This document shows positions 665 to 25,703 of a stretch of 40,774 nucleotides of DNA, in pieces (position 1 is the stretch's first letter; each line of letters starts with the position of its first letter). Source of the stretch: Promethearchaeota archaeon (lineage in GTDB: Archaea > Asgardarchaeota > Lokiarchaeia > Sigyniarchaeales > SOKP01); assembly GCA_030599585.1 (NCBI GenBank), contig JAUVNS010000027.1, positions 1 to 40,774 on the forward strand. The letters run 5' to 3'. Made by a program: the position numbers and the translations under genes. Under the pieces are notes generated by a model that worked only from the letters and a program-made list of their open reading frames with translations, was not told the origin of the DNA and searched no databases.

Positions 665-1780
665 TTATAATTCTATATTTTTTCCTACTCGAATTAACGC
701 CTTGTGCCCCTTTCGATCAATATATAAATAGACGGGCTTTATCTTCATTTTTCGTGCTATAAGTGCCATTTCTTGATCTCTCGTTGCTAGTCCATACCTT
801 TTTTCAATAAGGGCAAGCCTTAAGTTGCCGTCAGAGTGAGTTTTAAGTCCACTTGGTAATGGAATTACTTCGTATCTGTCATTGAGCGTATTAATAACTG
901 ATTTATTGTTATGTAAGCACTCATCCATAACTATAATTTTTTTTCCAAGGAAAATTTTTCTGATAGATTTGCTGATTTTTTCGCGGAGATTAAACCTCTC
1001 GTATAATTCTAACTTGTTAATAACTACGCTTTTAGGTTGAAGTATTGAAACTTCTTCGCTAGTTATATCTTTAATTAACTGAGAAATTGAGGTAGTATGC
1101 TTAGTTCGTTTATGTTGTTCCAAGGCAGGGAGCGTCTTGAATTTTCTATTACATAGGTCGCATTTAATTTTTTTACTTAAATGAGACGAATTAATGTGCT
1201 GGTTTAACGAGTTTAGAGAATCTAAAATTTTGCCACAATGAGAACAAACGAATTTCTTCTTTTGACAAACGCTACTTTTAACGTGTTGATTCATCGCATT
1301 TTCGTTTTTAAAGCCTTTTTTACAATGTGGACAAGTGATACTTTTTTTTGTACACGTTGCTGCTTTCTTATGCTGTTTTAACCCGTTTTCCGAGGCAAAT
1401 CTCTTGTCGCAATTAGAACACGAAAAGAGCCCCTCTTTTTTAATGTGGTCGCTTAGTTCTTTTTCTGTTTTAAAACCGTTCTTACATTTTGGACAAGAAT
1501 ATTTAGTTTTGTGCGCGTCTTTTTGATGCTGGGCTAATGATTTTTGTGTCTCGAATTTTTTTTTACAAGTATTGCACACTAATTTTTTTTGATGAGCAGA
1601 TTTTTTATGTTGATTAAGAGAGATTTCTGAAGTAAAAACTTTTTTACATTCCGTGCATCTATGAATATTATGACCTGTTGATTTATAATGCTGATTTAAT
1701 GCGTTAGATGTCTTAAAACTTTTATTACAGGTAGCGCAAATATAGAGTTTTTCAATTGGTTCCGTTGTAATTGAATTCAT
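665..1780 (-). CDS. Tandem C2H2/C2HC zinc-finger protein (8 fingers) with C-terminal PIN-like (DUF5615/Mut7-C type) domain
   Basis: Eight CxxC-x3-F/L-x5-L/M-x2-H units in aa 14-228; C-terminal IVMDE...SD...LATRDQEM fits the PIN DE / D / TxDxD pattern. Confidence 0.8.
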   Translation of the reverse strand: MNSITTEPIEKLYICATCNKSFKTSNALNQHYKSTGHNIHRCTECKKVFTSEISLNQHKKSAHQKKLVCNTCKKKFETQKSLAQHQKDAHKTKYSCPKCKNGFKTEKELSDHIKKEGLFSCSNCDKRFASENGLKQHKKAATCTKKSITCPHCKKGFKNENAMNQHVKSSVCQKKKFVCSHCGKILDSLNSLNQHINSSHLSKKIKCDLCNRKFKTLPALEQHKRTKHTTSISQLIKDITSEEVSILQPKSVVINKLELYERFNLREKISKSIRKIFLGKKIIVMDECLHNNKSVINTLNDRYEVIPLPSGLKTHSDGNLRLALIEKRYGLATRDQEMALIARKMKIKPVYLYIDRKGHKALIRVGKNIEL

Positions 1781-3371: not shown

Positions 3372-5525
3372 ATGACGCAAAAAAAAGATGGTGAACAGGA
3401 GGAATTCATCTTTGAGTTTTACGACGAAGACTACGCGAAATCTCTAGAGGGTGCCGAAAAACCAGTAATAACTGAGGAATACAACGAGATCGATTTTGAA
3501 ACGGATTTAAACGAAGAACAACTCGAAATTGTAAACAACATCCAAGGGGCAATGCTGGTCATTGCCGGAGCGGGTTCTGGAAAGACGAGGACTATCGTCT
3601 ATTCCGTTGCGAAACTGTTAACGTCGGGAGTAAAACCTAGCCAGATAATGTTAGTGACCTTTACCAATAAAGCCGCTCACGAAATGATTAAACGCGTCGA
3701 AATTTTACTTGGTAAAAAACCAAGAGGTATCTGGGGAGGGACGTTTCACTCGATTGCTAATAGATTCTTAAGGATGTACGCAAAAACGCTCGGACTAAAG
3801 CCTAATTTTACCATAATGGACGAGACTGACGCCAAAGGGTTAATGAAATTGTCAATTGATAAAGCAGGCGTAAAAGATCTCGAAGAGCGGTTCCCTACTT
3901 CGGCAATGGCCAAATCAATTTTATCGTTTTCGATTAATTGTAACAAATCTATTAAAGAAGTAATCCAATGGAAATACGGACAGTTTGATAGCGATCCTGT
4001 GCTTGCTAAATTAAACGAAGTAATTAAAATTTATAAAACTAAAAAAGCAGACGACGGTTTATTAGATTTCGACGACTTGCTTGTATTCTGGAGTAGATTG
4101 CTCGACGAAAGATCTATAGCTAAACTAATCGCTAGTAAGATTAAATACGTGTTGGTTGACGAATATCAAGATACTAACTACATCCAAGACGAGATTATTC
4201 ATAAAATCGTGTTGCAAAATCCAGATCGAAACATCATGGCGGTTGGCGACGATGCCCAGAGCATATACGCGTTTCGAGGTGCGAATTTTCAGAACATTTT
4301 GAATTTCGAAAGTAATTACAAAAAATGTAAAAGATACACCATTACCTACAATTATCGGAGCGCCCCTCAAATATTAGACTTAGCAAATAATTGCATAGAA
4401 CACAACGAAAATCAATTTAAAAAATCCATGAGAGCTACGAGACCGAGCGGTGTTAAGCCATTTCAAGTAAATTTAGGAGACGACAAAGACCAAGCAAGGT
4501 TTATCGCAAACCAAATTTTAAAATTGCGCCAAGATGGCTACAAACTGAACGAAATGGCAATTCTCGTACGAGCGGGGTTTCACACGATTAGGATCGAGCT
4601 GGAATTAAAAGCAAAAAACATCCCTTACGAAGTTCGAGCAGGAGTGGCTTTCTTTGAAAAAGCCCACATCAAAGATATGATTGCTCACCTACGCGTAATT
4701 GAAAATCCTTACGACGAAATCTCGTGGTCTCGAATATTTGGTATTATTTCAGGTATAGGTACCGTTTCCGCGTCAAAAATTTTTGAAGCGATCTCGAAAA
4801 CGGACGATCCGATCGTTAGCGTTTCGAGTAAAACATTTATCGATAAGCATCTTAAAGGCTCAAGAATCTCAAAAGATGGGATAAAAAACTTACTTTCTCA
4901 CGCGAAAAAATTAAAGGGGTTTACAATTGACGACGCTCCAACTGAACTAGTGAAAAAGTTAGTAGGGGCGCTTGAGGATTATATCAAAGCCAAGTACGAC
5001 AATTGGCAAGATAGATTAGAAGACTTACATCAATTAGGCGTTTACGCTCAAAACTATCCTAACACTCAGAAATTTCTGGAGAATTTAAGCTTGAATGCCT
5101 CGGCTTTAGAATCTAAAACGGTTTTAATGGGCTCTCAAATCGAAGACGAAAAACCTGTAGTGTTATCTACGGTTCATCGGGCTAAAGGGTTGGAGTGGAG
5201 GGTAGTGTTCATCCCAATGTTGTGCGAAGATTCGTTTCCTTCCAGTAGAGTAATTGGCGACCCCGACGCGTACGAAGAAGAAAGAAGGGTGTTTTACGTG
5301 GCAACAACAAGGACTAAGGACGAGTTGTATCTTATTTCGCCGGCGGTAAGAAATACCTATCGAGGCCCTCAGACGGTGCGGGTATCTCAGTTTGTCGGGG
5401 AATTAAACCCAAAAGTCTATAAAAGATCGTCAGTTCGCTATAAACCAACTCCGATTAACAAGAAGAACTCAAAAAAAAGCAAAGGATCGTTTTTTACTAC
5501 GGCAGATAAACTAGGTGAGAAATAA
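3372..5525 (+). CDS. uvrD: UvrD/PcrA/Rep-family SF1 DNA helicase
   Basis: AGAGSGKT, TFTNKAA, DEYQD, VGDDAQSIYAFRGA, NYRS, STVHRAKGLEW, EERRVFYVATTR. Confidence 0.95.
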   Translation: MTQKKDGEQEEFIFEFYDEDYAKSLEGAEKPVITEEYNEIDFETDLNEEQLEIVNNIQGAMLVIAGAGSGKTRTIVYSVAKLLTSGVKPSQIMLVTFTNKAAHEMIKRVEILLGKKPRGIWGGTFHSIANRFLRMYAKTLGLKPNFTIMDETDAKGLMKLSIDKAGVKDLEERFPTSAMAKSILSFSINCNKSIKEVIQWKYGQFDSDPVLAKLNEVIKIYKTKKADDGLLDFDDLLVFWSRLLDERSIAKLIASKIKYVLVDEYQDTNYIQDEIIHKIVLQNPDRNIMAVGDDAQSIYAFRGANFQNILNFESNYKKCKRYTITYNYRSAPQILDLANNCIEHNENQFKKSMRATRPSGVKPFQVNLGDDKDQARFIANQILKLRQDGYKLNEMAILVRAGFHTIRIELELKAKNIPYEVRAGVAFFEKAHIKDMIAHLRVIENPYDEISWSRIFGIISGIGTVSASKIFEAISKTDDPIVSVSSKTFIDKHLKGSRISKDGIKNLLSHAKKLKGFTIDDAPTELVKKLVGALEDYIKAKYDNWQDRLEDLHQLGVYAQNYPNTQKFLENLSLNASALESKTVLMGSQIEDEKPVVLSTVHRAKGLEWRVVFIPMLCEDSFPSSRVIGDPDAYEEERRVFYVATTRTKDELYLISPAVRNTYRGPQTVRVSQFVGELNPKVYKRSSVRYKPTPINKKNSKKSKGSFFTTADKLGEK

Positions 5526-6559: not shown

Positions 6560-8188
6560 TTATCTCATCCAAAATTGATTCTGGCATTTTTCGCAAAATT
6601 TAGCAGATTTTCTATTTACTGCGCCGCAATTGTCACAATACTTAATATTATTTTTTATTGGAGGTTCGGTCTTAAAAGTTTTGACATCAATAGGGAATTT
6701 TGAGCCTTTTATAGCATAATTAAGTTTTGTATCGTTTTCTTTTACTACAATAATTCCTCTAACCGATTTCGTTTGAGTTAGATTTTCACTTACCCACGCC
6801 ATATACCTTTGTATCTGACCAACAACTTTATCGCTTCCTTTCCCTCTTTTCAATTCTACAATTACATAACTATCCTGTTGATCTTTAAAAAGAACGTCTA
6901 TAAAACCAACGGAAGTTTTATACTGTCTTCCAATTAACTTCAATCCGTCTTCAAGTATTTCCGGATTTTTAACAATTGTATCTTCGATTTGCCTTTCATA
7001 AACTCGTTCATTAGGGCGATTTTTTTCGTAATTTAAAACAGTCTTCCATTTTGCTGAATCTAAATTCTTCTTAATAATTCCGTTTTTATCAGTAATGCTC
7101 TTTCTTTCTAACATTTTAGCCAAATTAGAAACTTCGAGAGACTTCTTAATTTTACCGGTTTGTTTATACGCAATGCTGAGAAGATCATAAGTTTTTGGAA
7201 TCTGCTGTTTATAAATTATATCTCTAGGATGCCATTTAATCTTGAAAACGTTATCGCAGAGTAGAAAAGCTTTTGTGTAATTCTTTACTTTAAGATGTGT
7301 TCTTATTAGATTGTTCCAAACGGTAATATTTTTATAATGGTATTCTAAAGAACGCTCAAAAGCTTTAATGGCATTACTATAATCACGAGCAATACTATAC
7401 GAAATACCTAAATAATTCCATACTGATCCGTTTTTTGGATTTTTCTCAATAATGTTTTTAAAAGTAATAATTGCGTTTTTGTAATCTTTTGCTTGATTAT
7501 ACGCTATACCTAAATATTGTTGATGATATTGATGATTTGGTTCAATTTCTATCGCTTTTTTATACATTGTAATAGCTTCATTATGCTCATTTTTGGCTCT
7601 ATAAACGTGACCTTGAAGAATCCAGGTAGAAGCGTCCTGCGAATTGATCTTTAATGATTCATTAAGAGATTCTAGTGCTTTCTTATAATCTTTCCTTACA
7701 TAATAATAAAAACTGCCAAGTCTTCGCCAAATATTATGATCATTGGAATTAATTTCTAAAGCTTTTTCAAGGGAATGAAGTTGTTCGTCGCGGTTTCCTT
7801 TCATTGCATGTGCTTCAGCGAGACCGCACCAAATCTCATGATCATCAGGATCTAACTTTATAGCTTTTTTATAAGCATTTATAGATTCTTCATATTTTTC
7901 TATAATGCTATATTTTATTCCAAGATGATACCAAGCTTCTAGATTATTAGGATCACATTTTAATGCGTCTTGATGTTTTTCTATAGAAAATTCTATCAGT
8001 TTTATTGCTTCGTTATGCTGATCCATTGTAAGAGCTTTATTAAAATAAGCGTGTCCTAAGTTATTCCAGATTTCTACGTTATTCATATCAAACTCCAATG
8101 CGTGGTTGTAAGCTTCTATTGATTTGTCGTATTCTTCCTTGTCATAATATTCATCACCTTTTATCATCCATGTGTAAAATTCAGACAT
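6560..8188 (-). CDS. TPR-repeat protein fused to NucS/EndoMS-like (DUF91) PD-(D/E)XK nuclease and C-terminal zinc ribbon
   Basis: About 9 TPRs; ERQIED...GRQY...GFIDVLFKD...VIVELKRG...VGQIQRY; CDNC...CEKC. Confidence 0.85.
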   Translation of the reverse strand: MSEFYTWMIKGDEYYDKEEYDKSIEAYNHALEFDMNNVEIWNNLGHAYFNKALTMDQHNEAIKLIEFSIEKHQDALKCDPNNLEAWYHLGIKYSIIEKYEESINAYKKAIKLDPDDHEIWCGLAEAHAMKGNRDEQLHSLEKALEINSNDHNIWRRLGSFYYYVRKDYKKALESLNESLKINSQDASTWILQGHVYRAKNEHNEAITMYKKAIEIEPNHQYHQQYLGIAYNQAKDYKNAIITFKNIIEKNPKNGSVWNYLGISYSIARDYSNAIKAFERSLEYHYKNITVWNNLIRTHLKVKNYTKAFLLCDNVFKIKWHPRDIIYKQQIPKTYDLLSIAYKQTGKIKKSLEVSNLAKMLERKSITDKNGIIKKNLDSAKWKTVLNYEKNRPNERVYERQIEDTIVKNPEILEDGLKLIGRQYKTSVGFIDVLFKDQQDSYVIVELKRGKGSDKVVGQIQRYMAWVSENLTQTKSVRGIIVVKENDTKLNYAIKGSKFPIDVKTFKTEPPIKNNIKYCDNCGAVNRKSAKFCEKCQNQFWMR

Positions 8189-10043: not shown

Positions 10044-12125
10044 CTACATTGACTCCCTCTGAACTTTTGTAATATGATTGCTCTTTTTGAACGTGTATAT
10101 ATCAGTTACGAAGGAATCTAAAGCCCTTTCGTGAGAAATGATGATCATTTGGGAAGTGTTCAGCGAATTAAAAATTTCTTGCATGCGATTAACTTGTTGT
10201 TGACTAAAACCGTCGGTAGGTTCGTCTAAAATCAGTAAATCTTTCGTTTTGACGTCTTGATACCGCTCGTTAATGATCTTAGTTAAGCCTAACCTGTACG
10301 CTAACGAGATTGCGCTTTTTTCTCCGCCTGAAAGATCTTTAAAGGGAGAATCGTATCCGTTCACGTTAATTATTGGCTGAAAATCGTCAGGGCGAATCTC
10401 AACTTCTATATTTCCGCTCTCAACTAATACGTTAAACCATTCTTTAAAAAAGGTGTTAAAATCGCGAGCGCTCGAAATTAAAATCTGTCTTTCAATATCT
10501 CTTAACAATACGGGAAATTGATCTTTTACCCAATTCCTAATTTCAGTAGAGTATTCCAGCTTCTCTTTTAATTTTTTCTTTTCTTCTAACCAAGTTTTTA
10601 AATCGTTAACTTCTTTTTTCATATACTCTAGAGTTGTTCTTTCGGCGCTTAACTCTATGTCAATGGCGTTCTTTAGGGATTTCAGTTCTTCTATATTTTT
10701 TTCAAAAGAGTCAAGATTTTTTCTAATTTCTAACTCTAATTGTTTTAACTCTGTTATATCAGCGATTTTAAAAGCCTTTAAGGTATCGTCTATTTCTTTT
10801 TGCACCTGAGTTAATTTACCTATCATCTCGTCTAGTTTTTTCTGATTATCCATTTCCTGTATTTTACTTGCTTCAACTAGCTTCTTGTACAACTCTATTT
10901 TACTTTTATTTGCTGTATAGTCTTGTAAATTTTTCAGATTTTGCTCTAATGTAGTAATATTTTTAGATAACGTTTCTATTTCGCTCGAAAACGACTCAAC
11001 CTTCCCTAACGCGTCTTTTAACTCTCCTTTAAATCGCTTCTCTTCGTGGATTTCTTGTCCACACATCGAACATTTCCCTTCTTTTAGTAATTTATCAACA
11101 TCTTTAATTTTTTGCTCCAGAACAGCCTTTTCTTTTCCTTTTTCAGAAATTTGTTCTCGGTCTTCGGAGATTTGAGCTCGTATCTGGTCTTCAGTTAAAT
11201 CTGTTGACAACTCGGCCAATACAATTTTTTTAGCTTCTTCTTCGTTCGTCTTAATGTTATTCTGGGCAGTTTCAAGATCTTTAGCGTATTTTTCTCTTAA
11301 TTCGGTATAATCTTTAAAAGTCTTTTCTTTACCTTCAAGTTCTATTATTTTCTTTGATAGGTCTTCTTTTTTTGATTTTATTGCGTCAAAATCTTTCTTA
11401 ACAAGGTTTATCTCGTTTTGTTTTACTTCGCTTTCTTTTTCCATGCCACTAATTTTGTTTACTTGAAGTTTTAACTCCTCTTCTTTTTCAGGAATCACAT
11501 CTTCGATCCCTTCGAGTTGACCGATTCGAATTTCGGTCTCTTTACTGTCGTCTCTTAAAAAATCTATTATAATTTTGATATTTCTTAGCGTAACTTCGTA
11601 TTTCTCAATGCCAAATACGTCCTTTAAGATTTCAAACCGTTTTTCTGGAGCAGCTTCTAAAATCTCTTTCACTGATTCTTGAGGTGTATATACCGTGTAA
11701 CGAAACAAATCAATTTTTTGTGCTCGTTCGTACCTTGTAACTGAATAGTTGAGCGTTTCTAAAATCTTTCTACGCAAATCAGTTGGGGCGTAAGAAGTTA
11801 GACTATCGTTTATTGTAAACGATCCTTTAGTCTGGGAGACCGTCCCAGCTTTACTTTTTGAAAGACTTCTCTTTATTACATATCTGTCGCCATCAAGTAA
11901 AAAGGTTAACTCAACGGATGCTTTGTTTTCGCCTCGGCGTAAGATAGAATCTCCGCTTAAGTCCGCGCTTTTTAACGTTCCAAATAAAGCGAATTCGATC
12001 GCCTTTAGAACTGAACTTTTTCCACTCCCGATATCTCCGTAAAAAAGCATGGTTGTCTGAGGAAAAGTAAGATCAATATTTTTAATACTTCTAATGTTCC
12101 CTATTTTAATTGATTCCAAAATCAT
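10044..12125 (-). CDS. rad50: Rad50 ATPase
   Basis: Walker A GDIGSGKSS, Q-loop YTPQE, coiled coil with Zn-hook CSMC, LSGGE, LILDEPT, ISH; overlaps mre11 by 4 nt. Confidence 0.95.
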   Translation of the reverse strand: MILESIKIGNIRSIKNIDLTFPQTTMLFYGDIGSGKSSVLKAIEFALFGTLKSADLSGDSILRRGENKASVELTFLLDGDRYVIKRSLSKSKAGTVSQTKGSFTINDSLTSYAPTDLRRKILETLNYSVTRYERAQKIDLFRYTVYTPQESVKEILEAAPEKRFEILKDVFGIEKYEVTLRNIKIIIDFLRDDSKETEIRIGQLEGIEDVIPEKEEELKLQVNKISGMEKESEVKQNEINLVKKDFDAIKSKKEDLSKKIIELEGKEKTFKDYTELREKYAKDLETAQNNIKTNEEEAKKIVLAELSTDLTEDQIRAQISEDREQISEKGKEKAVLEQKIKDVDKLLKEGKCSMCGQEIHEEKRFKGELKDALGKVESFSSEIETLSKNITTLEQNLKNLQDYTANKSKIELYKKLVEASKIQEMDNQKKLDEMIGKLTQVQKEIDDTLKAFKIADITELKQLELEIRKNLDSFEKNIEELKSLKNAIDIELSAERTTLEYMKKEVNDLKTWLEEKKKLKEKLEYSTEIRNWVKDQFPVLLRDIERQILISSARDFNTFFKEWFNVLVESGNIEVEIRPDDFQPIINVNGYDSPFKDLSGGEKSAISLAYRLGLTKIINERYQDVKTKDLLILDEPTDGFSQQQVNRMQEIFNSLNTSQMIIISHERALDSFVTDIYTFKKSNHITKVQRESM

Positions 12126-13432
12126 AGGCTCTTCCCCTTCTTAGTTAGATCAAAAATCTCAAGAAATTGGTTCAGTAGTTCTTCGTTGTATTCTCTAACT
12201 TGAGTTCCTTCTTCTCTATCAGTGCCCAACACTCCTAAGATTCTGTGAATTTTGTTTTCCATGTCTTTTTTGGATGTTTTTTTCATAGTAGTTTTTTCAG
12301 CGTGTTCGTGAATTAGCGCTTCTTCGATTTCCTCGTTTGTTTTTCCAACCGCAACGCTTACTGGAGCGTATTCCTTTGATGTAAGAGCGTTCTTATTTAT
12401 TAACGCGTCGAGCGCTCCTTTATTCTTTAGTTGTTCTGCAATTTCGCTCGATTTAATTTCGTAGGCTCTACCAGAAGTAAGCGAACCGATAATTCGGATC
12501 GTTACTATTTTTCCTTCAGCATCTAACCCTGAAATTTTTTGGGCTATAAGGTCTAGAGCTTCTATAGCGGTCTTGTTAGCGCAATCAATTACCAAGGTAA
12601 GAATTTCTCGTGGTTTTATCGGAATGTATTTAATCGTAAGCTTCACACTTTGAGATTCGGCGTTAATATCTCCGGAAACGATACAGAAACCACCATATCG
12701 ATATTTTTCAAGCTCGCGAAAATTGGTTGGATAAAGCGATCCGGGGTAAATAATGTTATTTTTTTGATCAACAACAAAAGTTCCATCGCCTTCTCGTAAT
12801 TCTTCAGGAACAGTTTTATGCAGGTGACCACCGGCGTAATACGCAAAATTTTGAGGTAAGAGCGATTTAGGAGCAGATTCCATTTCTTTGAATTCGACCG
12901 GTTTTAATTCGCTCATCATAGTGTGCAATACAAATATTTTAATTCCTGTTTCGTCCTCTAAATTTTCCCGCAGCAAACGCTTATAATCTTCAATTTCCAA
13001 ACTTCTTTTCCGTGCTCGTAATCCGGTTAGTTTTATACCCGTTTTTTCATCTTGGAAAAAATGTAATTTTAATTGTTTATTATCAGTGAGTTCGCCTTTA
13101 GATAGGTCAATAAACAGTCCTGCCGAAATTAAGGGACGGATCATTGAATTATCGGACGGTGAAAAATCGTGCGAACCCATAATTCCATAGACAGGTATGT
13201 TTTTATCGCGTAATTTTTTTAACTCTCTTACTGCTAAATCTATAACGTCTACTTTTGGATTGCTGATGTCGAATAGATCGCCACTGATTACAACAAAATC
13301 TACTTCCTCTTCAAGAATTGTATTAATTGTCTGTTCGAACGCTTCGTATCCCATCTGATTTAGTACTTCGTTTCGCCAAGCTCCCAAATGGCAATCAGAT
13401 AAATGGGCAAATTTTACATCCATCCTTTTCAC
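12122..13432 (-). CDS. mre11: Mre11 nuclease
   Basis: HLSDCHLG, GDLFD, GSHD, LH, GHLH phosphoesterase motifs; lies between herA and rad50. Confidence 0.95.
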   Translation of the reverse strand: MKRMDVKFAHLSDCHLGAWRNEVLNQMGYEAFEQTINTILEEEVDFVVISGDLFDISNPKVDVIDLAVRELKKLRDKNIPVYGIMGSHDFSPSDNSMIRPLISAGLFIDLSKGELTDNKQLKLHFFQDEKTGIKLTGLRARKRSLEIEDYKRLLRENLEDETGIKIFVLHTMMSELKPVEFKEMESAPKSLLPQNFAYYAGGHLHKTVPEELREGDGTFVVDQKNNIIYPGSLYPTNFRELEKYRYGGFCIVSGDINAESQSVKLTIKYIPIKPREILTLVIDCANKTAIEALDLIAQKISGLDAEGKIVTIRIIGSLTSGRAYEIKSSEIAEQLKNKGALDALINKNALTSKEYAPVSVAVGKTNEEIEEALIHEHAEKTTMKKTSKKDMENKIHRILGVLGTDREEGTQVREYNEELLNQFLEIFDLTKKGKSL

Positions 13433-13464: not shown

Positions 13465-15054
13465 TCACGAAAATCCTGGCGATACTATGTTAGTTTTTGA
13501 ACTTTGTTTTTGTTTGCTTCCCTTAATAAAATCTTCAAATAACGGAATGCTAATGGGAACTGCAAATTTAGTAAAGGTTGATGTAACAATAGCCTCTCCC
13601 TTATCAAGACTTCCGATCGTTTGATAATCGTCCGATAGGTCTTGAGCAGCGCTATCAATTAGAGCCCTTCGTTCTGGACCCATCTCGTTACCAAGAATAA
13701 TTTTCGTATTCATATTTGCAAGTATTTCTCGATCGATTATACTTGGAAGCTGTGTAATTGCAATAAGACCTATTTGAAATTTTCTTCCTTCTCGAGCGAT
13801 TTTTCCAAAGACATTATCAATTGATTCTAACACTTTCTTTCCTATAACCCGCGGAGCTTCTTCGATTACGATGGAAATAACAGGTCTTTCGTGTAATTTA
13901 TCTTGAAACTTAAGCTTTTTATATTCTTTAAAAACGCCTTCAACAATAATTGAAGCGATAAATATCTCTTCTGCGCCTTCTAGTAAGGAGGTATCGATTA
14001 TTACCGTTTTACCTTTTGATAAAGAACTTATTATAGCGTGCGTAGTTTGTTCGTAGCCGCTCGATGCGTATATCCCTTTTTCGATTAGAGTTCCATCGTC
14101 CTCGACGTAAAGGTTTAATAATAACCCAAGCTTCCTCCTTAGAACTTCGACAGTTGTAAGTTGAATTCCCATTTTTTTTAGTTCTTCTAAAGTATGATCT
14201 TCGTATATATTTTGAATCCACTTTTTTCTATCAGCTCGATAAAACACTACAATCGCTTGTTTTTGGGCGTCTGTAAGCTTTATACTCCCGATAATGTGTG
14301 CCGGATTAATGAGGTTCATATTAAATTTCAAATCGTTAGACCCTGAAGTGCCTCTAATAGTATAATATTCTAAGAATTCAGGACTTTTTGGGTGATCTCT
14401 CAAACCTTTTTGAGTTATACTTCCGTAATATTCGTTATGGGGGTCAAATATTAATTTACCGCACTTTTCGTTGTCCAGAAGATCGTAGAGTATTGTTTTT
14501 ACCAAATTAGATTTACCTCTTCCCGTTGCTGCGGGTATTAATATGTGATGTTTTAATACCTCGGGAGCGTTAACTTTCACGTTTATATCTAAGACTTTCG
14601 AACCAGAACGCACTTTCCCAAGATTTAGTGGCGTCTCAATCTCTTCTTCTTGAAAAAATTGAAGGTGAGATTCCTCTAATTCGAAGATATCTGAAAAGAA
14701 TTTGGGTAATTTTTTGGGAATTGTAAGCTCGAATTTTTCTGAAATCTCGCTTTTACTAATAGATATTAACTCTCTTGCGTGAGCAAGCACATAATTTCTT
14801 AGTTCAGGTTCGTAAATTTTGAGATTTGAGCGTTCTCTTTCCAACACATAACCAGCCATTAATTCCAAAGAACTATCGGGAATTTGGCTTCCGTAAAATA
14901 AATCTTTAATTTGGAAGATAGAATATTCCTCCATACTATTTCCAGCGACAATTAATTCTCCAATCTCAAAATCTTTGTCGGATTTTTGTCTTAACATTAA
15001 TTTAGCAAAAGATCCCGAGACGAAACTACCTATTTTATTTCCTAAACCAGTCAT
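13465..15054 (-). CDS. herA: HerA helicase/translocase
   Basis: N-terminal HAS-barrel-like region, [40 protein letters not shown]. Confidence 0.92.
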
Positions 15055-15086
15055 TTTTTTATCCTCATTCTAACCTAATTTCATTC

Positions 15087-15347
15087 TTAAAACTCAACCT
15101 TTACTCTAGGTTTAAAAGTTTCGCTTAAAATTTGAACATCGAAAATGTCTTTTAACCTAAGAGATCTCCAATCATTTCTTTCAAGACAGAAAAAATGAAA
15201 AATGGTTCCTGTACTTTTTTCTCGAAAGGAGTATGGTTCGCATATTCTTTCTGTATAAGAGCCATCCTTTTTATAGGCTTTTAATTGTATGAGATTTAAC
15301 TTTTGACCCGCCTTTATAATTTTTTGTTGTATATTCACATTAAACAC
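15087..15347 (-). CDS. Stand-alone WYL-domain protein
   Basis: YKKDGSYTERICEPYSF...HFFCLERNDWRSLRLKDI matches the WYL pattern (R.v.P.....yC..R...R.FR.DrI); no HTH. Confidence 0.8.
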   Translation of the reverse strand: MFNVNIQQKIIKAGQKLNLIQLKAYKKDGSYTERICEPYSFREKSTGTIFHFFCLERNDWRSLRLKDIFDVQILSETFKPRVKVEF

Positions 15348-17177
15348 CTAATTGGAATTTGCTATTGAATTCAATTGTAAAATAATACTTTTTAGATTTT
15401 CTGAAATTTCATCTTTATTTTTTATTGATTTAGACAGAGCTTTAACTAAATCTGGTTTTGAAACTTGTTCTAAACATTCTGTTTCGATTAATTCTAAAAG
15501 TTCTTTCGACAGTTTTACCCGGGTTCTTATATTTTCAATTTCTTGAGGGTTCCATTCATTATCATTCTTTTTAGGATATTTATTATTAAGCATAGTCACC
15601 CATTGTTCTGATGTAAATTCACCTTCAAATTCTCCTTCAGAATCTGGTTCTTTTCCTACTAAAAATAAGTCGATTCCTTCTCGAAAACCTAATTTTCTTA
15701 AACCAGGTTCTTTAAATTGTTTTATCTTTTTTGAATCTTTATCTACTACTATAATTACCCGTTTTTTGTTATTTCTTAAAAATTTGGCAAAAGATAGTGC
15801 TTGAATGTTGCTTTCAGCGTTTATAAACAATATTCCTGCTTCAAAATGAGTTTTATCATTTATCAATTCAAATAGGATAGGGAATGCTTTATACTCAGAT
15901 TCACCCTCAACTATAACAAATATTTTTTCAAAGAATAAAAAAGAACTACGAAAACCAATTGAAAAGGCTAGGTCTTTGAGAAAATCGCCAATTTGTTCAT
16001 AATCTTCATCTGTTATAAATAATATTTCAGTTTCATCATTGTTATTTAGAGTAAAATTAACTATTTGATTAGGAGGAAAATTATCAATTAATTTTATTGA
16101 ATGCGTAGCAATTAAAACTTGTACATTACCTTTTTTTGAAAAATCATTTAAAATGTTTAATAAGTTAGAAATCTGGAAATAATCGAAGTGAAGATCAGGT
16201 TCATCAAAAGCTATTACGAAATTTTCATTTAGTTCTTCAGTAATTTGAAGATTTGACCATTCATAAATTCCTAGCATTATTTGCTTTCTCTTACCTGTAG
16301 CTTCAGACTCGAATCTGACTTTATCTCCACTTTTTTTTATAATATTAAACTCATCTAAATTCAATCCTTGAAGTGCATTATATTCGGGGTTTATATCAAT
16401 CCTTTCAATATCCTTACAATATTTTTTTATTATATCATTAGCTTCTTCGATTTTTTGATTGCATATACCTAAAACAACAGTAGTTATTTTTTTAACTTCT
16501 TTTTCAATATTCAATTCTTCTACTTTTTCTTTAAGAGTGTTTATTAGAATTTTTATCATTTCTCTTTTAGGATCAGGAGATTCCTCAGAAGAAAGCAAAA
16601 TGAAATTTGGTAGAATTGTTTTTATATTTTTCGTAGGGATTATTTTTTCGATTTGTTTGTCGCCTGGAAATTCTTCTCGTTTGATCTTCAATTTATCTTT
16701 CATGCTTGAAACAGTTTCACTTGAACTTAATTCAATGTCATATTTGTTACATAATTCTTCATAAGGTCCTTTAAAGCGACCTAAACCAAGATTATCTAAA
16801 TCTGTGCCAGTTCCTAAAGTGTATATAAAATAATATAGTTCTGGATCATTTACTTTAAATTTTTTATAAATTGTAATAAAATTATTATCTAAACTTGGTT
16901 CATATGTTAGGAAGAATTCTTTTTCTTCTTCCGTTATTTGAAACTTACCAGAAAAGATTACCTCCAAATTCTCAATTTTTACGTTACTATTGATATCTAC
17001 CTCATTAATTTTTTGATGGGGCTCAAGAAATAACTTAAGAGCGTCCAAAGTGGTTGTTTTTCCTCCACCATTTTGTCCTATCAAGATGGAAATTTCATGA
17101 ATTGGCATTGAAATCATTCCTTTCACACTCCGAAATTTTTCATAAGATAATTCTAATAATTTAATCAATATCACCAT
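15348..17177 (-). CDS. OLD-family ATP-dependent nuclease (ABC ATPase + TOPRIM)
   Basis: GQNGGGKTT, FDEPDLH, IATHS; TOPRIM IVEGESE and VDKD. Confidence 0.9.
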   Translation of the reverse strand: MVILIKLLELSYEKFRSVKGMISMPIHEISILIGQNGGGKTTTLDALKLFLEPHQKINEVDINSNVKIENLEVIFSGKFQITEEEKEFFLTYEPSLDNNFITIYKKFKVNDPELYYFIYTLGTGTDLDNLGLGRFKGPYEELCNKYDIELSSSETVSSMKDKLKIKREEFPGDKQIEKIIPTKNIKTILPNFILLSSEESPDPKREMIKILINTLKEKVEELNIEKEVKKITTVVLGICNQKIEEANDIIKKYCKDIERIDINPEYNALQGLNLDEFNIIKKSGDKVRFESEATGKRKQIMLGIYEWSNLQITEELNENFVIAFDEPDLHFDYFQISNLLNILNDFSKKGNVQVLIATHSIKLIDNFPPNQIVNFTLNNNDETEILFITDEDYEQIGDFLKDLAFSIGFRSSFLFFEKIFVIVEGESEYKAFPILFELINDKTHFEAGILFINAESNIQALSFAKFLRNNKKRVIIVVDKDSKKIKQFKEPGLRKLGFREGIDLFLVGKEPDSEGEFEGEFTSEQWVTMLNNKYPKKNDNEWNPQEIENIRTRVKLSKELLELIETECLEQVSKPDLVKALSKSIKNKDEISENLKSIILQLNSIANSN

Positions 17178-17185
17178 GTAAATAA

Positions 17186-18319
17186 TTAATTTTTCCGAAT
17201 TGTATTTAACAAATCGTGCGCGTCGATGGAGCGAATGCGCGGTAAAATAAAATTCTCGTACAATTCCGAATCGAATTCAGCCATTAACTGAATTTTTTGA
17301 GGGCCAATTTCTCTTGCTGCTACTCTCGATAATTGATCTACTTTTATTAAGCCGTAGGGGTAACCCGGAAACGATAAATCGGTTGAATTTGCGGCTAAAT
17401 TTGAAATAATTACTTCTTTTTCCCGTTGATCTAACTTTTCTGATTGGTCTAAATAAATGTCAAACCTAAAAGGCGAACGAGTAAATTTATGAAGTTTTAC
17501 GAAATAGACGTCTGCTAAATTATCCGCCTTAGTCATCCTATAGATTGGATGATAATACCACGTCTCTTCTGGATATTTTTTACTAGCCATCATGTCAACT
17601 AAAGAGATTAAGGAATCTCCGGTTTTTGTAATCAGCCTACATGTCTTCGAGAGCCCCGTAATATACACGTTTTTCTCCTTGGCTGTTGCGTGTAACTCTC
17701 TCACCAACAAGATTTCGTCTTTATATCCAGTTTGAAGCGATCCATCTCGAATAAATATATCTCCCTTACCCAGTTCATACGCAATAAGTTTGGTGGCGTA
17801 CGACCATTCGGCAAACCTCATTGCAACTCCGCCAAAAATCTCAATTCTTGGCATAAATCGAAATCCAATTAATTGTCTTACCTCGTTCAAAGGTATAATA
17901 ATTTCTTCGTCTGGCAAAAATTCTTTAAATTCTGGCTCTCTCGGAAATAGTTGGATGTTGTAAGCCATTTTTCCACCAGTCATAGGTTCTAGGATCGTTG
18001 CAGTGTAAAATTCTATTACCTCGGGAGTTTTCTTGAACGAAATAATTTCATTTCCTTCGAATAATACTCCTGCGACTCTATTCAAACTAATACTAAAATC
18101 TGCCGCGCTCAAAATTGAAGCAGTCCCTCCGTCCACGAAGGCTAATTTTCGCGATACATCACAGTCCGGAATTGGAAAAATTCTCTCTTTAGCGATATCA
18201 TAACTTATTTCGTTCTCTCCTTCGATAAAAGGAGAATCTTCAATATTGATTTCTCGCTTGCGTTGTTGAATAAAGTCGATACAATCTTTCAGCACAGAGG
18301 GGTTTTTATCGTCGTTCAT
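17186..18319 (-). CDS. nurA: NurA 5'-3' nuclease
   Basis: FVDGG, IRDGSL, GLSKT, GYPYGL..VD..SRV; context upstream of herA-mre11-rad50. Confidence 0.9.
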   Translation of the reverse strand: MNDDKNPSVLKDCIDFIQQRKREINIEDSPFIEGENEISYDIAKERIFPIPDCDVSRKLAFVDGGTASILSAADFSISLNRVAGVLFEGNEIISFKKTPEVIEFYTATILEPMTGGKMAYNIQLFPREPEFKEFLPDEEIIIPLNEVRQLIGFRFMPRIEIFGGVAMRFAEWSYATKLIAYELGKGDIFIRDGSLQTGYKDEILLVRELHATAKEKNVYITGLSKTCRLITKTGDSLISLVDMMASKKYPEETWYYHPIYRMTKADNLADVYFVKLHKFTRSPFRFDIYLDQSEKLDQREKEVIISNLAANSTDLSFPGYPYGLIKVDQLSRVAAREIGPQKIQLMAEFDSELYENFILPRIRSIDAHDLLNTIRKN

Positions 18320-18478: not shown

Positions 18479-19162
18479 TTAATTCTCTCTAGATTCCAGT
18501 TCTTTATTGACTTCCAAATACAACGCTTGACGGTTTACAGGTGCTAAATCAATTTTTTTTTCTGATAAATACAATTTCAAATTGATTTTTGAGAGTTTTT
18601 TCAAATTTTTTTCATAAACCCATTCAATAATACCGTCAATTAAATTCAATGATTCATTTCTTTCTTTTTCAATTCTTTCGTGTTTTCTTTGCTTTTTCAG
18701 TTCTTTAACTTTTTGCCAAACCATGTTGCCAATCTTTTCTAACCTCTCATGTGTTGCTAGCGGTAATTTTAAAAAATCTTCGATGCCTATGTCGCGATAA
18801 TACGGATGAAGATTAATTGAGGAAAGATCCACTTGAGTTTTTACTATGGCATAAAGCTTATCAACTATTTCTTCATCGGATTTAGTATTTAATACTTTAT
18901 TTCGTTTCAATACTAGTTCCTTTTCTAATTCTATAATTTTGAACCAAGCTATGTCAAATATTTCCGATTGTCTATTTTCTAACTCTGGTATCTGTAGCAA
19001 CTCCTCGACTTGATGTCTTGACCAGAATAATTGCTCAAAACTCTCAAATCTTTTTCTAACATTATCATCAGTTAAGGTGTTATCACTTACAAACTCATTA
19101 TAAATTAACTGAGCAATTTCTTCATTAGAATATTTTTTAAACAAATTTTCTTTCATTCTCAT
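18479..19162 (-). CDS. Hypothetical helical protein
   Basis: 227-aa ORF, charged and alpha-helical, no recognised motif. Confidence 0.7.
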   Translation of the reverse strand: MRMKENLFKKYSNEEIAQLIYNEFVSDNTLTDDNVRKRFESFEQLFWSRHQVEELLQIPELENRQSEIFDIAWFKIIELEKELVLKRNKVLNTKSDEEIVDKLYAIVKTQVDLSSINLHPYYRDIGIEDFLKLPLATHERLEKIGNMVWQKVKELKKQRKHERIEKERNESLNLIDGIIEWVYEKNLKKLSKINLKLYLSEKKIDLAPVNRQALYLEVNKELESREN

Positions 19163-22056: not shown

Positions 22057-22980
22057 TTGATTTTTTTAAATGTGTCAAAACAATTATTTGATAAATGTCA
22101 GATTAAAGAAAGGAAGCTAAAACATCAAATTAATTTAGATTGGGCAAATTTTTCGATCTTTTGGGGCATTAAAATTGTCGACAAAATTATTGAATGGTAT
22201 CTGAATTTAGAAAATTATCGAGATTTATTGCTTCAATTACTTCCTAAAGCTCGAATTAAAGAGAATATAAATTCTAAGACGCAATGGTTTGATCATACTG
22301 TCCCTTGGTATTGTCATTTGGATCCCGATATAATCCCAGAAGTTTTACCAAGAGAACAAAACTGGCGCTCTATTTTTGGTCAAATAAAATCAGCTCAAAG
22401 ACACTTAGAAAAACAGAGCGTAGAAAAAAACGATCTTTTTCTTTTTTTTGGTTGGTTTAGGAAGACTAAAATAGTAGAAAAAAGTAGTGGTGCGAAATTG
22501 ACATATGACCCGGCAGATCCTCAAGGTAGGCATATCATTTTCGGTTATTTACAAATTGAAGAAACGCTAAAGAAAAAAGATTATTTAAAGATCCAATCGT
22601 GGATGAAACCACACCCTCATTTGGGGAAAGGTTTATGGAACGCTCCTCATAATACTCTTTATATTGCACGAACAACACTCTCTTGGAATAGAAATTATGC
22701 TGGTGCGGGCTATTTTAAGTTTCATAAAGATCTCGTTTTAACAGAAACAAACACTAAAATAAATCCTAAGAAGAACCGATCGATCTGGAAATATTCTTTT
22801 TTACCTTTTGGAACAGAAATAACTTATCATAATAACGATAGTTGGATCGAAAAGAATAATGAACGTGGAGAAAAAATACACTATTTCAAATCTGCTGACC
22901 GAGGGCAAGAATTTATCGTTGACAATTGTTTAGAATTAGAAAATACTATAAAAAAATGGGATTATTTTAATCAAAAATAA
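22057..22980 (+). CDS. Nucleotide modification-associated domain 3 (Nmad3) protein, probably 5'-truncated
   Basis: CHLDPDI, FGQ..SAQ.HL, DLFLFFGWFR, HIIFGYLQI, HPH, RGQEFI. Confidence 0.75.
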   Translation: MIFLNVSKQLFDKCQIKERKLKHQINLDWANFSIFWGIKIVDKIIEWYLNLENYRDLLLQLLPKARIKENINSKTQWFDHTVPWYCHLDPDIIPEVLPREQNWRSIFGQIKSAQRHLEKQSVEKNDLFLFFGWFRKTKIVEKSSGAKLTYDPADPQGRHIIFGYLQIEETLKKKDYLKIQSWMKPHPHLGKGLWNAPHNTLYIARTTLSWNRNYAGAGYFKFHKDLVLTETNTKINPKKNRSIWKYSFLPFGTEITYHNNDSWIEKNNERGEKIHYFKSADRGQEFIVDNCLELENTIKKWDYFNQK

Positions 22981-22986
22981 TAATAT

Positions 22987-23676
22987 TTAACAATTATCTT
23001 GTCCTATTGTCTCATCCGCTTCTGCTTCTTTTAGATCACTTTGAGAACATTTCACATCGTATTTTTTTGATAAAATCTCTTTTTTCATTTGAGGGTCTCC
23101 GTTTATACCTTTTTTTCGTTTTCTAATCCATTCGATAAAATCGTTGGCATATTCGTCGTTAGATGTTGATCTATGACTTTGACCTTGCTTTATTATGCCT
23201 TTCAAGTTATTTGGAAGTGGTTTGGGGTTATTTCCAAAATAATAGAAATCTGTTGATAAAAGAGCGCATTGACCTCCCAAATCGGTTTTCATATTCTCTT
23301 CGGTGTGAACTGCCTTTCGAATTTTAGGATTTGATGTATCTGGATCGGAAAAATCGTATATACAATCTCCGATTCTTTTCGTGTAATCTCCGCTATCCCA
23401 GTCTGGTATTTTTCCAGGGTAATTTATGTTGCAAAAAGTATCGTATTGTTTCATTGACATTTTATTTGTTATTCTCATAGCATATACGACTTGTCCTGAA
23501 ATGTCTCCGATAGGAGAGTTTTTTGAGCCTAACCCCACTACCCAATCTTTTACTTTTGCGGTTCTTCTAATAACTGGTTTGCATATAACTAAAGTACATA
23601 TTCCATGATATGGATTTGGAGCAGACCCTCCATCGTGTGGAATAACGTAACTAAATAATGTTGGTTTATCTGCCAT
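22987..23676 (-). CDS. Nucleotide modification-associated domain 2 (Nmad2) protein
   Basis: LFSYVIPHDGGSAPNPYHGICTLVICKPVIRRTA..DWVVG; GDCIY; LLSTDFYYFG. Confidence 0.85.
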   Translation of the reverse strand: MADKPTLFSYVIPHDGGSAPNPYHGICTLVICKPVIRRTAKVKDWVVGLGSKNSPIGDISGQVVYAMRITNKMSMKQYDTFCNINYPGKIPDWDSGDYTKRIGDCIYDFSDPDTSNPKIRKAVHTEENMKTDLGGQCALLSTDFYYFGNNPKPLPNNLKGIIKQGQSHRSTSNDEYANDFIEWIRKRKKGINGDPQMKKEILSKKYDVKCSQSDLKEAEADETIGQDNC

Positions 23677-23693: not shown

Positions 23694-25703
23694 TTAATTT
23701 ATCATCTTACCGCAGCACTTTTTATATTTCACCCCACTTCCACATGGGCAAGGTTCATTTCGACCAACCTTTTTAGGCTTTTTTAGTGGTATTATGTTTA
23801 TATTTTCATCTTGTGGAATCTCTATGCCCTTTATCTTATTGATATTGGATTGCATTTCTTTTACTTTATCTTTCATTCCCAATTCAAGATAAAGTGCCAG
23901 AGCTCTTCCCAGATGCTTTAGAGAATCATATTTCTTATTCATTTTATCATATATTTGACCAATTAGATCATTTCCTACGGCTTGATCAAATTTATCACCT
24001 ATATAACCAGCAATTTTCAATGATTCTTTACATGATTTTAGAGCCCTCTGAAAGTTTTTTCGAGTATAGTAAATAAAACCGAGGTTGTTGAGACAAGTGG
24101 CGTGGCCAGAAAGATCTCTTAATTGATCTGTAAGGTTTAGCACTAGCTTGTTTATTTTTAATGCTTTTGAATAATTCTTTTGAACAATATGAACACCTCC
24201 TATATTGTTAAGAACTACAGCTTTTCCTGATAAGTCTCCTAATTTCTCGTAGATCTTTAATGCCGCGCTATAAAACTTTAGTGCTCCTAAATATTTTGTT
24301 TGTTCAAAATAAATAAGACCCATATTATTAAGAGTTGGAGCTTTACCTGAAAAGTTTTCTAATTTCTCGTCGATCTTTAAAGCCTCTTTTAAATATTTTA
24401 AGGCTTCTGAATATTTTCCTAGTGATTTGTATAACTTACCCATGTTATTAAGACTTGTTGCTATTCTACGAAATGACAATTTATCTCCTTCTAAGCTTAA
24501 TTTTTCATGAATCTTTAATGATTTCTGACAGTATTTCAGTGCTTCTGAAAAGTTCCCTTGTGCATCATAAATCTCCGAGATGTTACCTAAAGCCAAAGCC
24601 ATCCATTGTTGGTCTTCTATATCTTTAGCAAGCTTAAGAATTTCTCTCGAACATCTTAATGCATCATTATATTTATCAAGAGTATTATAAATCCCATAAC
24701 AAATTTGATTTTTCCAAAAATTATTTGATGGTCTAATATTTGTCTTTAACCAATCATATGGATTTAAGGAAAAAACTTCCGTATCTTTTTTTGGTTTTAT
24801 TTCTATAATTGTATTAATCAACCTTGTTGTGTTTGCATCTACACGATAAACGTGCTCTGCGTTGTTAGCTCGTTTTATTTCTTTTAAAATTTGATTAATT
24901 TTATCTGTATTATCAGTTGTATCTGAATTAATTTCATAAACTAGTTCCTTACCGCCATCATTTCGCACATATTTTATCCATATAATGCTTTTAAGGTTTT
25001 TTAAAATCAATAATGTAGGAATTACATCAAAGTCATCGCTTCCTGAATAACCTATGACGACCAATGAACGATCTCTTGAAATATTATTGAACGCTTCTCG
25101 TTGAAAAGGTTGGATTTGGAATACATTTAACCCTTCCTTATTTAACCCTAATGCTTGAATCGTGGCAACCAGAGAATCTTTTGTATCCTCTCCCGTGATT
25201 AAATTTTTCGTCGAACCATGAATTTTATATAATGTTTTTTTACCATTCTTAAATAATTCATTTGGATTACTATAGTTTTCAAAATCCTGTTTTGTAATGA
25301 TGGGAATAATTTCCTTTTTAGAAACTTTAGATTGTAATAAAGCATATTCAATTAAAAAATCAAAATTCGTGGTCATGACAAAATGTCCTTTAGTAATCAG
25401 ATCTGCCAGAAAGAAATGCTGAAAATTCGGTTTATCGCATTGACCATAATAATCTATAATTTTAAGTTTTGGATCTAAAGTATCACGCAAAATTCCCACT
25501 AATTGTTCAAACCTAAGTTCCTCTAATTCTAAAATTTTCTCAATCTCAGATTCGGCACATGTATAATTAATGATTGCTTTCATCATAGAGCGTCCGGCTG
25601 GTAAACACGAGGGAGGATCAACAGAACACCCTGCACCTACAAGAAAGGTTAATTTTGCCTTATCATTAAATAAATCCTTTATAGTGAGATTTGTAGGTTT
25701 CAT
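23694..25703 (-). CDS. SIR2-like domain + TPR repeats + SEC-C motif protein
   Basis: FLVGAGCS, TTNFD, KIHGS, IGYSGSDDFD; about 7 TPRs (LNNMG/LNNIG); GRNEPCPCGSGVKYKKCCG. Confidence 0.88.
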   Translation of the reverse strand: MKPTNLTIKDLFNDKAKLTFLVGAGCSVDPPSCLPAGRSMMKAIINYTCAESEIEKILELEELRFEQLVGILRDTLDPKLKIIDYYGQCDKPNFQHFFLADLITKGHFVMTTNFDFLIEYALLQSKVSKKEIIPIITKQDFENYSNPNELFKNGKKTLYKIHGSTKNLITGEDTKDSLVATIQALGLNKEGLNVFQIQPFQREAFNNISRDRSLVVIGYSGSDDFDVIPTLLILKNLKSIIWIKYVRNDGGKELVYEINSDTTDNTDKINQILKEIKRANNAEHVYRVDANTTRLINTIIEIKPKKDTEVFSLNPYDWLKTNIRPSNNFWKNQICYGIYNTLDKYNDALRCSREILKLAKDIEDQQWMALALGNISEIYDAQGNFSEALKYCQKSLKIHEKLSLEGDKLSFRRIATSLNNMGKLYKSLGKYSEALKYLKEALKIDEKLENFSGKAPTLNNMGLIYFEQTKYLGALKFYSAALKIYEKLGDLSGKAVVLNNIGGVHIVQKNYSKALKINKLVLNLTDQLRDLSGHATCLNNLGFIYYTRKNFQRALKSCKESLKIAGYIGDKFDQAVGNDLIGQIYDKMNKKYDSLKHLGRALALYLELGMKDKVKEMQSNINKIKGIEIPQDENINIIPLKKPKKVGRNEPCPCGSGVKYKKCCGKMIN

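Follow-up and report, generated by a model that had tools for sequence, protein, structure and literature searches.

A candidate OLD-WYL module recurrently found beside supernumerary archaeal NurA-HerA-Mre11-Rad50 operons

Introduction

Nucleases of the OLD family have been divided into classes 1 to 5, defined by a gene that stands alone or by its partners, namely UvrD, a reverse transcriptase (RT), split ATPase and Toprim proteins, or a membrane protein (PMC12392090, PMC12796447). The link of DNA-end processing to OLD control is an open question, and a study of P2 Old closes by calling for a missing activator (PMC12445682). WYL domains are candidate sensors of the products of such processing. 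The regulator CapW binds single-stranded DNA (ssDNA) made by resection (PMC11662680), and its WCX domain contributes to the pocket that holds ssDNA. The WYL domain fused to Thermotoga Pif1 gives affinity for ssDNA and couples the ATPase to function (10.1101/163188). The NurA proteins of Asgard archaea, which belong to the resection machinery, are uncharacterised (PMC13748450).

Here, we analysed a stretch of 40,774 nucleotides (the window) from a genome of Promethearchaeota (Lokiarchaeia; GCA_030599585.1, contig JAUVNS010000027.1), in which a predicted OLD nuclease and a stand-alone WYL protein are encoded inside a resection operon. An OLD with its own candidate nucleic-acid sensor makes a small test system for the question above.

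Results

An OLD-WYL cassette lies between nurA and herA

ORF calls gave the order nurA-OLD-WYL-herA-mre11-rad50, with all genes on the minus strand (Table 1) and with gaps of 8 bp (nurA/OLD), 0 bp (OLD/WYL) and 32 bp (WYL/herA). Together with the family scans, they matched the order, strand and gaps that an earlier reading of the letters alone (the sequence-only reading) had described. Pfam and NCBIfam scans showed that nurA, herA, mre11 and rad50 were all intact and clustered. Because homologues are called shorter, translation may start three codons further in, at the second GTG (15338) for WYL and at a TTG (17168) for OLD. The junctions of the cassette are not an assembly artefact, since a 2224-base contig from another study covers 15029-17249 with 87 differences and the identical gene order was seen in further assemblies. 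In two runs, the cassette had less contig depth than nurA and herA, a depth that sums other organisms as well. A promoter and terminator scan, built on bacterial consensus and applied here to an archaeon, found no terminator-like site on the minus strand of the operon. Close relatives of the nurA carry Promethearchaeota labels.

Table 1 Features of the 40,774-nucleotide window
Feature	Position	Strand	Basis or remark
Protein of 371 aa, many tandem C2H2 zinc fingers	665-1780		eukaryote-like architecture
UvrD helicase, 9.8 kb away from OLD and convergent with it	3372-5525	+	Pfam
TPR-NucS nuclease, candidate sensor-effector defence gene	6560-8188		
rad50, short (693 aa), CxxC hook motif	10044-12125	-	Pfam Rad50-like; NCBIfam Rad50 2e-41
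mre11 nuclease	12122-13432	-	Pfam Metallophos; NCBIfam Mre11 9e-28
herA ATPase/translocase	13465-15054	-	Pfam DUF87 2.4e-21; NCBIfam HerA 9e-30
Stand-alone WYL-domain protein, 86 aa	15087-15347	-	Pfam, AlphaFold2, structure comparison, alignments
OLD-family ATPase-Toprim nuclease (predicted), 609 aa	15348-17177	-	Pfam, PADLOC, motifs, Foldseek, tree
nurA	17186-18319	-	Pfam NurA 5.8e-6; 'type B' nurA-first operon, island clade on tree
Gene of 227 aa upstream of nurA	18479-19162	-	no Pfam family
Nmad3 and Nmad2, convergent	22057-23676		
SIR2-TPR-SEC-C, candidate sensor-effector defence gene	23694-25703		
Eco57I-like (type IIG-like) restriction-modification gene, 1086 aa	32484-35744		

The predicted OLD nuclease belongs to a rare clade

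The OLD protein matched the Pfam families AAA_15 (3e-14), AAA_21 (8e-13) and, over its cut-off, OLD-like_TOPRIM (PF20469, 4e-8), and its PADLOC matches were led by Old (8e-23) and GajA (2e-16), with AriAB far below both. The ATPase part carries Walker A at residues 34-41, a signature-like ESEATG at 290-295, Walker B at D325-E326 and an H-loop at H359; Walker A, Walker B and the H-loop were invariant across the alignment, and Walker B of this clade reads 'DEPD'. In the Toprim part we found E424-G425-x-x-E428, D479-x-D481 and the acidic residues E516/E518, which by motif appear equivalent to the known catalytic ones. The best Foldseek match was the T. scotoductus OLD (6p74, E 2.9e-16), and GajA was also among the best. 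The model of the OLD was middling (pTM 0.57), which accounts for the low TM-scores (0.38) to solved OLDs.

In trees from quick searches, with SH-aLRT support only, the paired OLDs of DEPD type formed one clade (97), which L226 joined at 85. The clade is rare, being found in 2-3 of the 161 genomes of the class and in 2 of the 301 genomes of a Bathyarchaeia sample. Neither the OLD nor the WYL of the window had relatives among viral contigs, and a species-genome scan with the OLD alignment gave no match; one unannotated and unverified phage record held an OLD homologue without WYL. Homologues of the clade also occur on Streptomyces (L199, L202, L205, L200) and Kitasatospora plasmids. In 9/12 of these plasmids they lay within about 15 kb of the record end, often directly behind the terminal helicase gene, from which a KTSC gene separates one of them. 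One Streptomyces homologue sits ahead of sbcD-sbcC.

The partner is a bare WYL domain

The 86-aa protein scored 21.4 bits (2.5e-4) against Pfam WYL, just below the cut-off of 21.8 bits. Its AlphaFold2 model had a pLDDT of 93, and in structure comparison it aligned with PafBC at Z 13.0 (rmsd 2.4, 82 aligned residues) and with the WYL domains of PafBC, BrxR, CapW and DriD at Z 11-13, the next unrelated rows reaching Z 9 or less; Foldseek gave a TM of 0.80 to BrxR. The predicted structure thus confirms the WYL fold. Neither a wHTH nor a WCX is present in the stop-bounded ORF (86 aa, or 83 aa from the second GTG), and homologues are 83-112 aa long. As it has no DNA-binding head, the protein is not expected to be a classical transcription factor. 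It keeps R34, E37-P38-Y39, R57, R61 and R64, of which the four arginines are conserved among close homologues, and is without the third (last) arginine of the RxFRxDR-type motif. The profile of the family also matched the WYL-bearing ATPases 8BNS/8BNV, which we take to be Pif1, and an Atlas search returned generic small-WYL clusters only. Fusions of this family of small WYLs with other defence effectors also occur, one with TIR (350 aa, P0031) and one with a nucleotidyltransferase of AbiEii type (461 aa, L241:331-1716).

The OLD-WYL pair recurs in several lineages

OLD followed by WYL was found between nurA and herA in L016-18, L054, L055 and L026, with OLD identities of 57-90%, and the pair recurs within this range in L058 too. 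Many of the loci came from a search with NurA, a choice that favours adjacency. The pair also occupies the nurA-herA junction in L027/L059, where OLD and WYL are 68-69% identical to those of the window and the operon itself is distant (nurA 30%, herA 23% identity, Mre11 and Rad50 fused). This natural Mre11-Rad50 fusion, of about 1190 aa, occurs in a third nurA-herA operon clade (L059:2991-6557, L232:9913-13491). In Bathyarchaeia, the pair follows rad50 with a 4-bp overlap in L141 and adjoins nurA, WYL first, in L123. A broken OLD-WYL pair follows rad50 in G052. Pairs without resection genes were seen in L025, in L019 (where nurA is missing), in L166 (14-bp overlap) and in a Bacteroidota-labelled MAG, L226 (4-bp gap). 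The OLD of L166 (L166:4176-6014) has Gly at the position of a Toprim catalytic Glu and may be nuclease-impaired.

A second OLD clade is paired with a second WYL subfamily in L086, L090, L229 and L232, a subfamily that in L025, L226 and G052 is paired with OLDs of DEPD type as well. The sequence-only reading had proposed OLD and a stand-alone WYL as a two-gene system, and the two do occur together widely elsewhere, in more than one archaeal phylum and in contigs of other origin, in two OLD clades and with two WYL subfamilies. The layout varies (L025 is convergent, L086 and L229 are divergent, and L123 has WYL first), whereas gene order and orientation are tighter in Gabija.

When the 161 class genomes were searched starting from WYL, seven of the eight full-length stand-alone WYL genes adjoined an OLD (G000, G052, G066, G091, G140, G119 and G120, not G155), the remaining matches being fragments or fusions that were left out of this count. 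The profile that picked up G052, G066, G091 and G140 had been built without them, and in G066 OLD and WYL are both broken. OLDs of the same clade also occur without WYL (L051, L052, L221, L204 and Streptomyces plasmids), so that WYL is dispensable for the OLD clade.

The operon of the window is a supernumerary island copy

The window genome holds a second nurA-herA-mre11-rad50 operon on contig C12, about 90% identical, in which nurA is followed directly by herA and the cassette is absent. A distant herA-393aa-mre11-rad50 operon lies on contig C22 at a conserved chromosomal site (about 200100-206550 of G000:C22; L077:8113-14548), and its 393-aa gene had no Pfam match. The genome has herA, mre11, rad50 and nurA copies other than those of the window; bin contamination is 8.9%, and the window contig, C12 and C22 may not all be from one cell. 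The sequence-only reading saw in the cassette a candidate guard of the archaeal end-resection machine. The operon is, however, a supernumerary island copy and not the sole copy at a conserved chromosomal site, given the C12 copy and the operon of a different clade that holds that site on C22.

Six genomes of the same genus carry the nurA-first type at the conserved site that the C22 operon fills here. The operon type of the window (type B) occurred in 46/161 class genomes and the C22 type (type A) in 54/161, and both together in only four other family genomes against about 17 expected if independent, kin not being independent. The two types may thus be alternatives for the ordinary repair job, which would make the window copy an extra one. 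Across the family, the conserved site holds either of the two distant types (C22 versus L042-L047 and L110-L118), nearly mutually exclusively, an apparent replacement of whole operons. On the NurA tree, nurA-first operons fell into two clades found mainly at the conserved site and an 18-row island clade, which includes the window.

OLDs and other defence genes gather at island-clade operons

On the NurA tree, an OLD adjoined 8/18 island-clade rows against 0/19 conserved-site rows. Likewise, 6/16 Toprim matches in type-B genomes abutted the nurA-first operon, and one more followed the third operon type (L232), against 0/12 on the contig of a type-A operon in genomes with that type; kin are not independent in these counts, and Fisher values overstate the difference. 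According to the tree, at least three OLD lineages arrived at resection operons independently of one another. They lie upstream of the operon, within it or downstream, and are found in Lokiarchaeia and Bathyarchaeia. One OLD clade (L086, L090, L127, L148, L159, L232) was nearly always beside such operons. The association of OLD with nurA-herA-mre11-rad50 held up, OLDs being strongly drawn there, although none was seen beside a conserved-site copy.

Other genes are found in the same places. Argonaute leads the operon in L016/17, L026, L094, L096, L142, L143 and L150. Long Argonautes that lead or closely precede nurA-herA-mre11-rad50 (including L016:6369-8738, L026:3186-5453 and L259) occur in Lokiarchaeia as well as Nitrososphaerales. 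These proteins could obtain their guides from resection. Copies of the island operon also carry NERD-helicases, UvrD, restriction-type methylases, TPR proteins and small ORFs. In one island subclade (L095, L096, L097, L119), a NERD nuclease-helicase of 622-627 aa fills the slot before nurA. In Jordarchaeia/Freyarchaeota (L126, L134-L137, L146) other small ORFs are inserted at the nurA-herA junction, which indicates that this junction accepts inserts generally. The 227-aa gene upstream of nurA is a probable optional member of the island operon, judging from homologues (27-33%) that sit after rad50 in the Argonaute-led Nitrososphaerales operons L142, L143 and L150; an Atlas search with it gave no usable match. 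Close homologues of the window UvrD flank this operon type with or without OLD.

The cassette is present or absent in close operon alleles

The OLD gene has a GC content of 0.272 (4th percentile of genome ORFs) and a CpG observed/expected ratio of 0.72, whereas the flanking genes have 0.34-0.38 and 1.4-1.5, with nurA and herA at the 96-98th percentile for CpG. Of the AT-rich, CG-poor insert that had been noted by eye, the contrast between OLD and its flanks was borne out, but the flanks are themselves atypical (CpG-rich) for the genome. Cassette and operon both depart from the host average.

Close alleles have or lack the cassette at the nurA-herA junction. In a three-sequence mosaic test, the informative sites of the window nurA sided mostly with empty alleles (66:36 and 97:58), while the last six nurA sites together with herA favoured L017, an allele that has the cassette (49:74 and 73:132; Fisher p 3e-4 and 5e-7). 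The last ~25 nt of nurA match cassette-bearing alleles. These patterns fit a cassette that would move between operon alleles via homologous recombination in nurA and herA. Inspection of the cassette ends by eye revealed neither a target-site duplication nor an inverted repeat.

Discussion

We put at about even the chance that OLD and WYL form an undescribed two-gene defence module that has joined mobile resection operons repeatedly and in which WYL would be an ssDNA-binding modulator of OLD. Beyond gene content and synteny, we infer the following steps. OLD would be the effector, an ATP-controlled Toprim nuclease whose target may be DNA or tRNA. The bare WYL most likely binds ssDNA and would recruit or gate OLD post-translationally, by analogy with the fused WYL of Thermotoga Pif1. 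The spare resection machine, if co-expressed, would place the pair where the ends of an invader or of a damaged chromosome become ssDNA, so that a DNA end would be resected by Mre11-Rad50 and HerA-NurA, the resulting ssDNA would be met by WYL, and cleavage by OLD would follow. Cran1, an archaeal OLD that does not serve in defence (PMC12796447), counts against a defence reading. Also weighing against the module are the clade members that lack WYL, a layout looser than that of Gabija, and the absence from the WYL of a WCX domain and of the last motif arginine. Only tentatively do we suggest the fuller picture, in which ssDNA made by mobile NurA-HerA-Mre11-Rad50 is read by free WYL, which switches OLD on, and the island operon serves as an archaeal immune hub. 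As part of this tentative picture, DNA ends of invaders might be chewed in a RecBCD-like manner, feeding both Argonaute and OLD-WYL.

The same data could arise if OLD-WYL were a real unit with no functional tie to resection, the operon junctions being a handy landing or exchange site with a ready promoter. We hold this less probable than a module with a WYL modulator, but a serious competitor. Pairs without resection genes (L019, L025, L166, L226), the many unrelated genes found at these flanks (NERD-helicase, restriction-modification enzymes, TPR proteins, small ORFs) and the lack of OLD at conserved-site operons speak for it, and flank recombination would explain the spread without selection for coupling. 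It sits less well with at least three OLD lineages having reached such operons separately, one clade being nearly always there, with the presence of one cassette at the nurA-herA junction of two operon clades that have diverged too far for recombination (L027 and the window), and with the Streptomyces homologue ahead of sbcD-sbcC. The sequence-only reading offered a different tie, a guard that could kill or arrest the cell when resection is blocked or ssDNA accumulates. In such a guard, OLD would be restrained during resection and released when a virus blocks it, by analogy with the response of P2 Old and Gabija to loss of RecBCD. P2 Old is lethal to recBC mutants (PMC12392090), Gabija targets ends free of RecBCD (PMC12407980), OLDs are repeatedly beside resection operons, and the island-clade operon may be the sole one found in some genomes. 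Such a guard should watch the conserved-site operons, and the absence of OLD there (0/19, 0/12) weakens the proposal, as do the other herA, mre11, rad50 and nurA copies in the window genome and the finding that V. cholerae OLD acts independently of RecBCD (PMC12392090). Firing on blocked resection also runs against WYL sensors, which bind and respond to the ssDNA that resection makes (PMC11662680); activation by the ssDNA product is of the opposite polarity. We regard a guard of this kind as improbable.

Two further explanations concern the pair itself. WYL might inhibit OLD as an antitoxin, with ligand binding or loss of WYL freeing OLD and the cassette kept partly by addiction. A large nuclease with a small coupled partner, the joint decay in G066 and the closest fused relatives of WYL (a TIR protein and an AbiEii-type toxin) would suit this arrangement, which we nevertheless hold very unlikely: some intact members of this OLD clade have no WYL (L051, L221, Streptomyces), and closely related OLDs have swapped WYL subfamilies (G052 and L025 compared with the window), which is hard to reconcile with a specific antitoxin. 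Least credible to us is an accessory repair nuclease, in which OLD would serve the resection complex by trimming hairpin or blocked ends, helped by WYL as a small ssDNA-binding protein, with no killing. The embedded position and tight packing, the cellular role of archaeal Cran1 (PMC12796447) and the clustering of homologues near the ends of Streptomyces linear plasmids are in its favour, but a clade so rare and patchy (2-3/161 class genomes; 2/301 in the Bathyarchaeia sample), often broken (G052, G066, L058), AT-rich and placed among defence genes speaks against a repair function.

If a defence module with a WYL modulator is true, a partner class would be added to the five OLD classes and a function given to stand-alone WYL proteins, and spare resection operons would seem to serve immunity in Asgard and other archaea. 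If the pairing is mere co-location, the finding shrinks to a new defence hotspot.

No description of an OLD-WYL system was found in the literature searched, a scope that did not take in the OLD-ATPase neighbourhood survey of Krishnan et al. 2020 (PMC7544218). Judged by sequence, the pair belongs to the OLD and WYL families but to no named system. With class 1 OLDs (P2 Old, Ts OLD 6P74, V. cholerae OLD) the OLD of the window shares an N-terminal ABC ATPase and a C-terminal Toprim in one chain. Ts OLD is its best structural and profile match, yet at only about 14% identity, and P2 Old is likewise tied to DNA-end processing. Class 1 OLDs are stand-alone genes in variable neighbourhoods, whereas here WYL adjoins most close and several distant homologues, although some clade members stand alone; the recurrent partner, the DEPD Walker B and the archaeal host set the window OLD apart. 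Gabija (class 2) is also a two-gene OLD system with a reported RecBCD link, and its GajA models match at 2e-16, but its partner is the UvrD helicase GajB and not an 86-aa WYL. The UvrD of the window was rejected as a GajB, lying 9.8 kb away on the opposite strand with independent synteny, while the genes downstream of OLD are WYL and then herA. Retron-OLD (class 3), like PARIS and Cran1, shares the ATPase and Toprim folds, and it has an adjacent RT and ncRNA; no RT family was found among the scanned window ORFs, and the neighbours of the OLD-WYL pair are nurA and herA (gaps 8 and 32 bp). The partner is therefore neither the UvrD of Gabija nor the RT of retrons, as had been stated from the letters alone. 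ATPase and Toprim are separate in PARIS (class 4), although PARIS fusions exist; PARIS was rejected for the single 609-aa ORF and for an AriAB score far below those of the Old and GajA models. Cran1 (class 5) lies in a Sulfolobales operon with a membrane-protein gene, and the OLD of the window differs in its neighbours and its patchy distribution.

The WYL regulators CapW, BrxR, DriD and PafBC share the fold (Z 11-13), and their ligand-face arginines are partly kept in the WYL of the window. They carry wHTH and WCX, and the lack of both in the WYL of the window precludes repression or activation in their manner. In Pif1-WYL the domain is fused to the enzyme, whereas here it is encoded by a gene of its own. 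The ordinary archaeal herA-mre11-rad50-nurA operon has the same four genes, while the operon of the window is nurA-first, has a short Rad50, is supernumerary and patchy (46/161), and carries swappable add-ons: OLD, WYL, Argonaute, NERD-helicase and UvrD.
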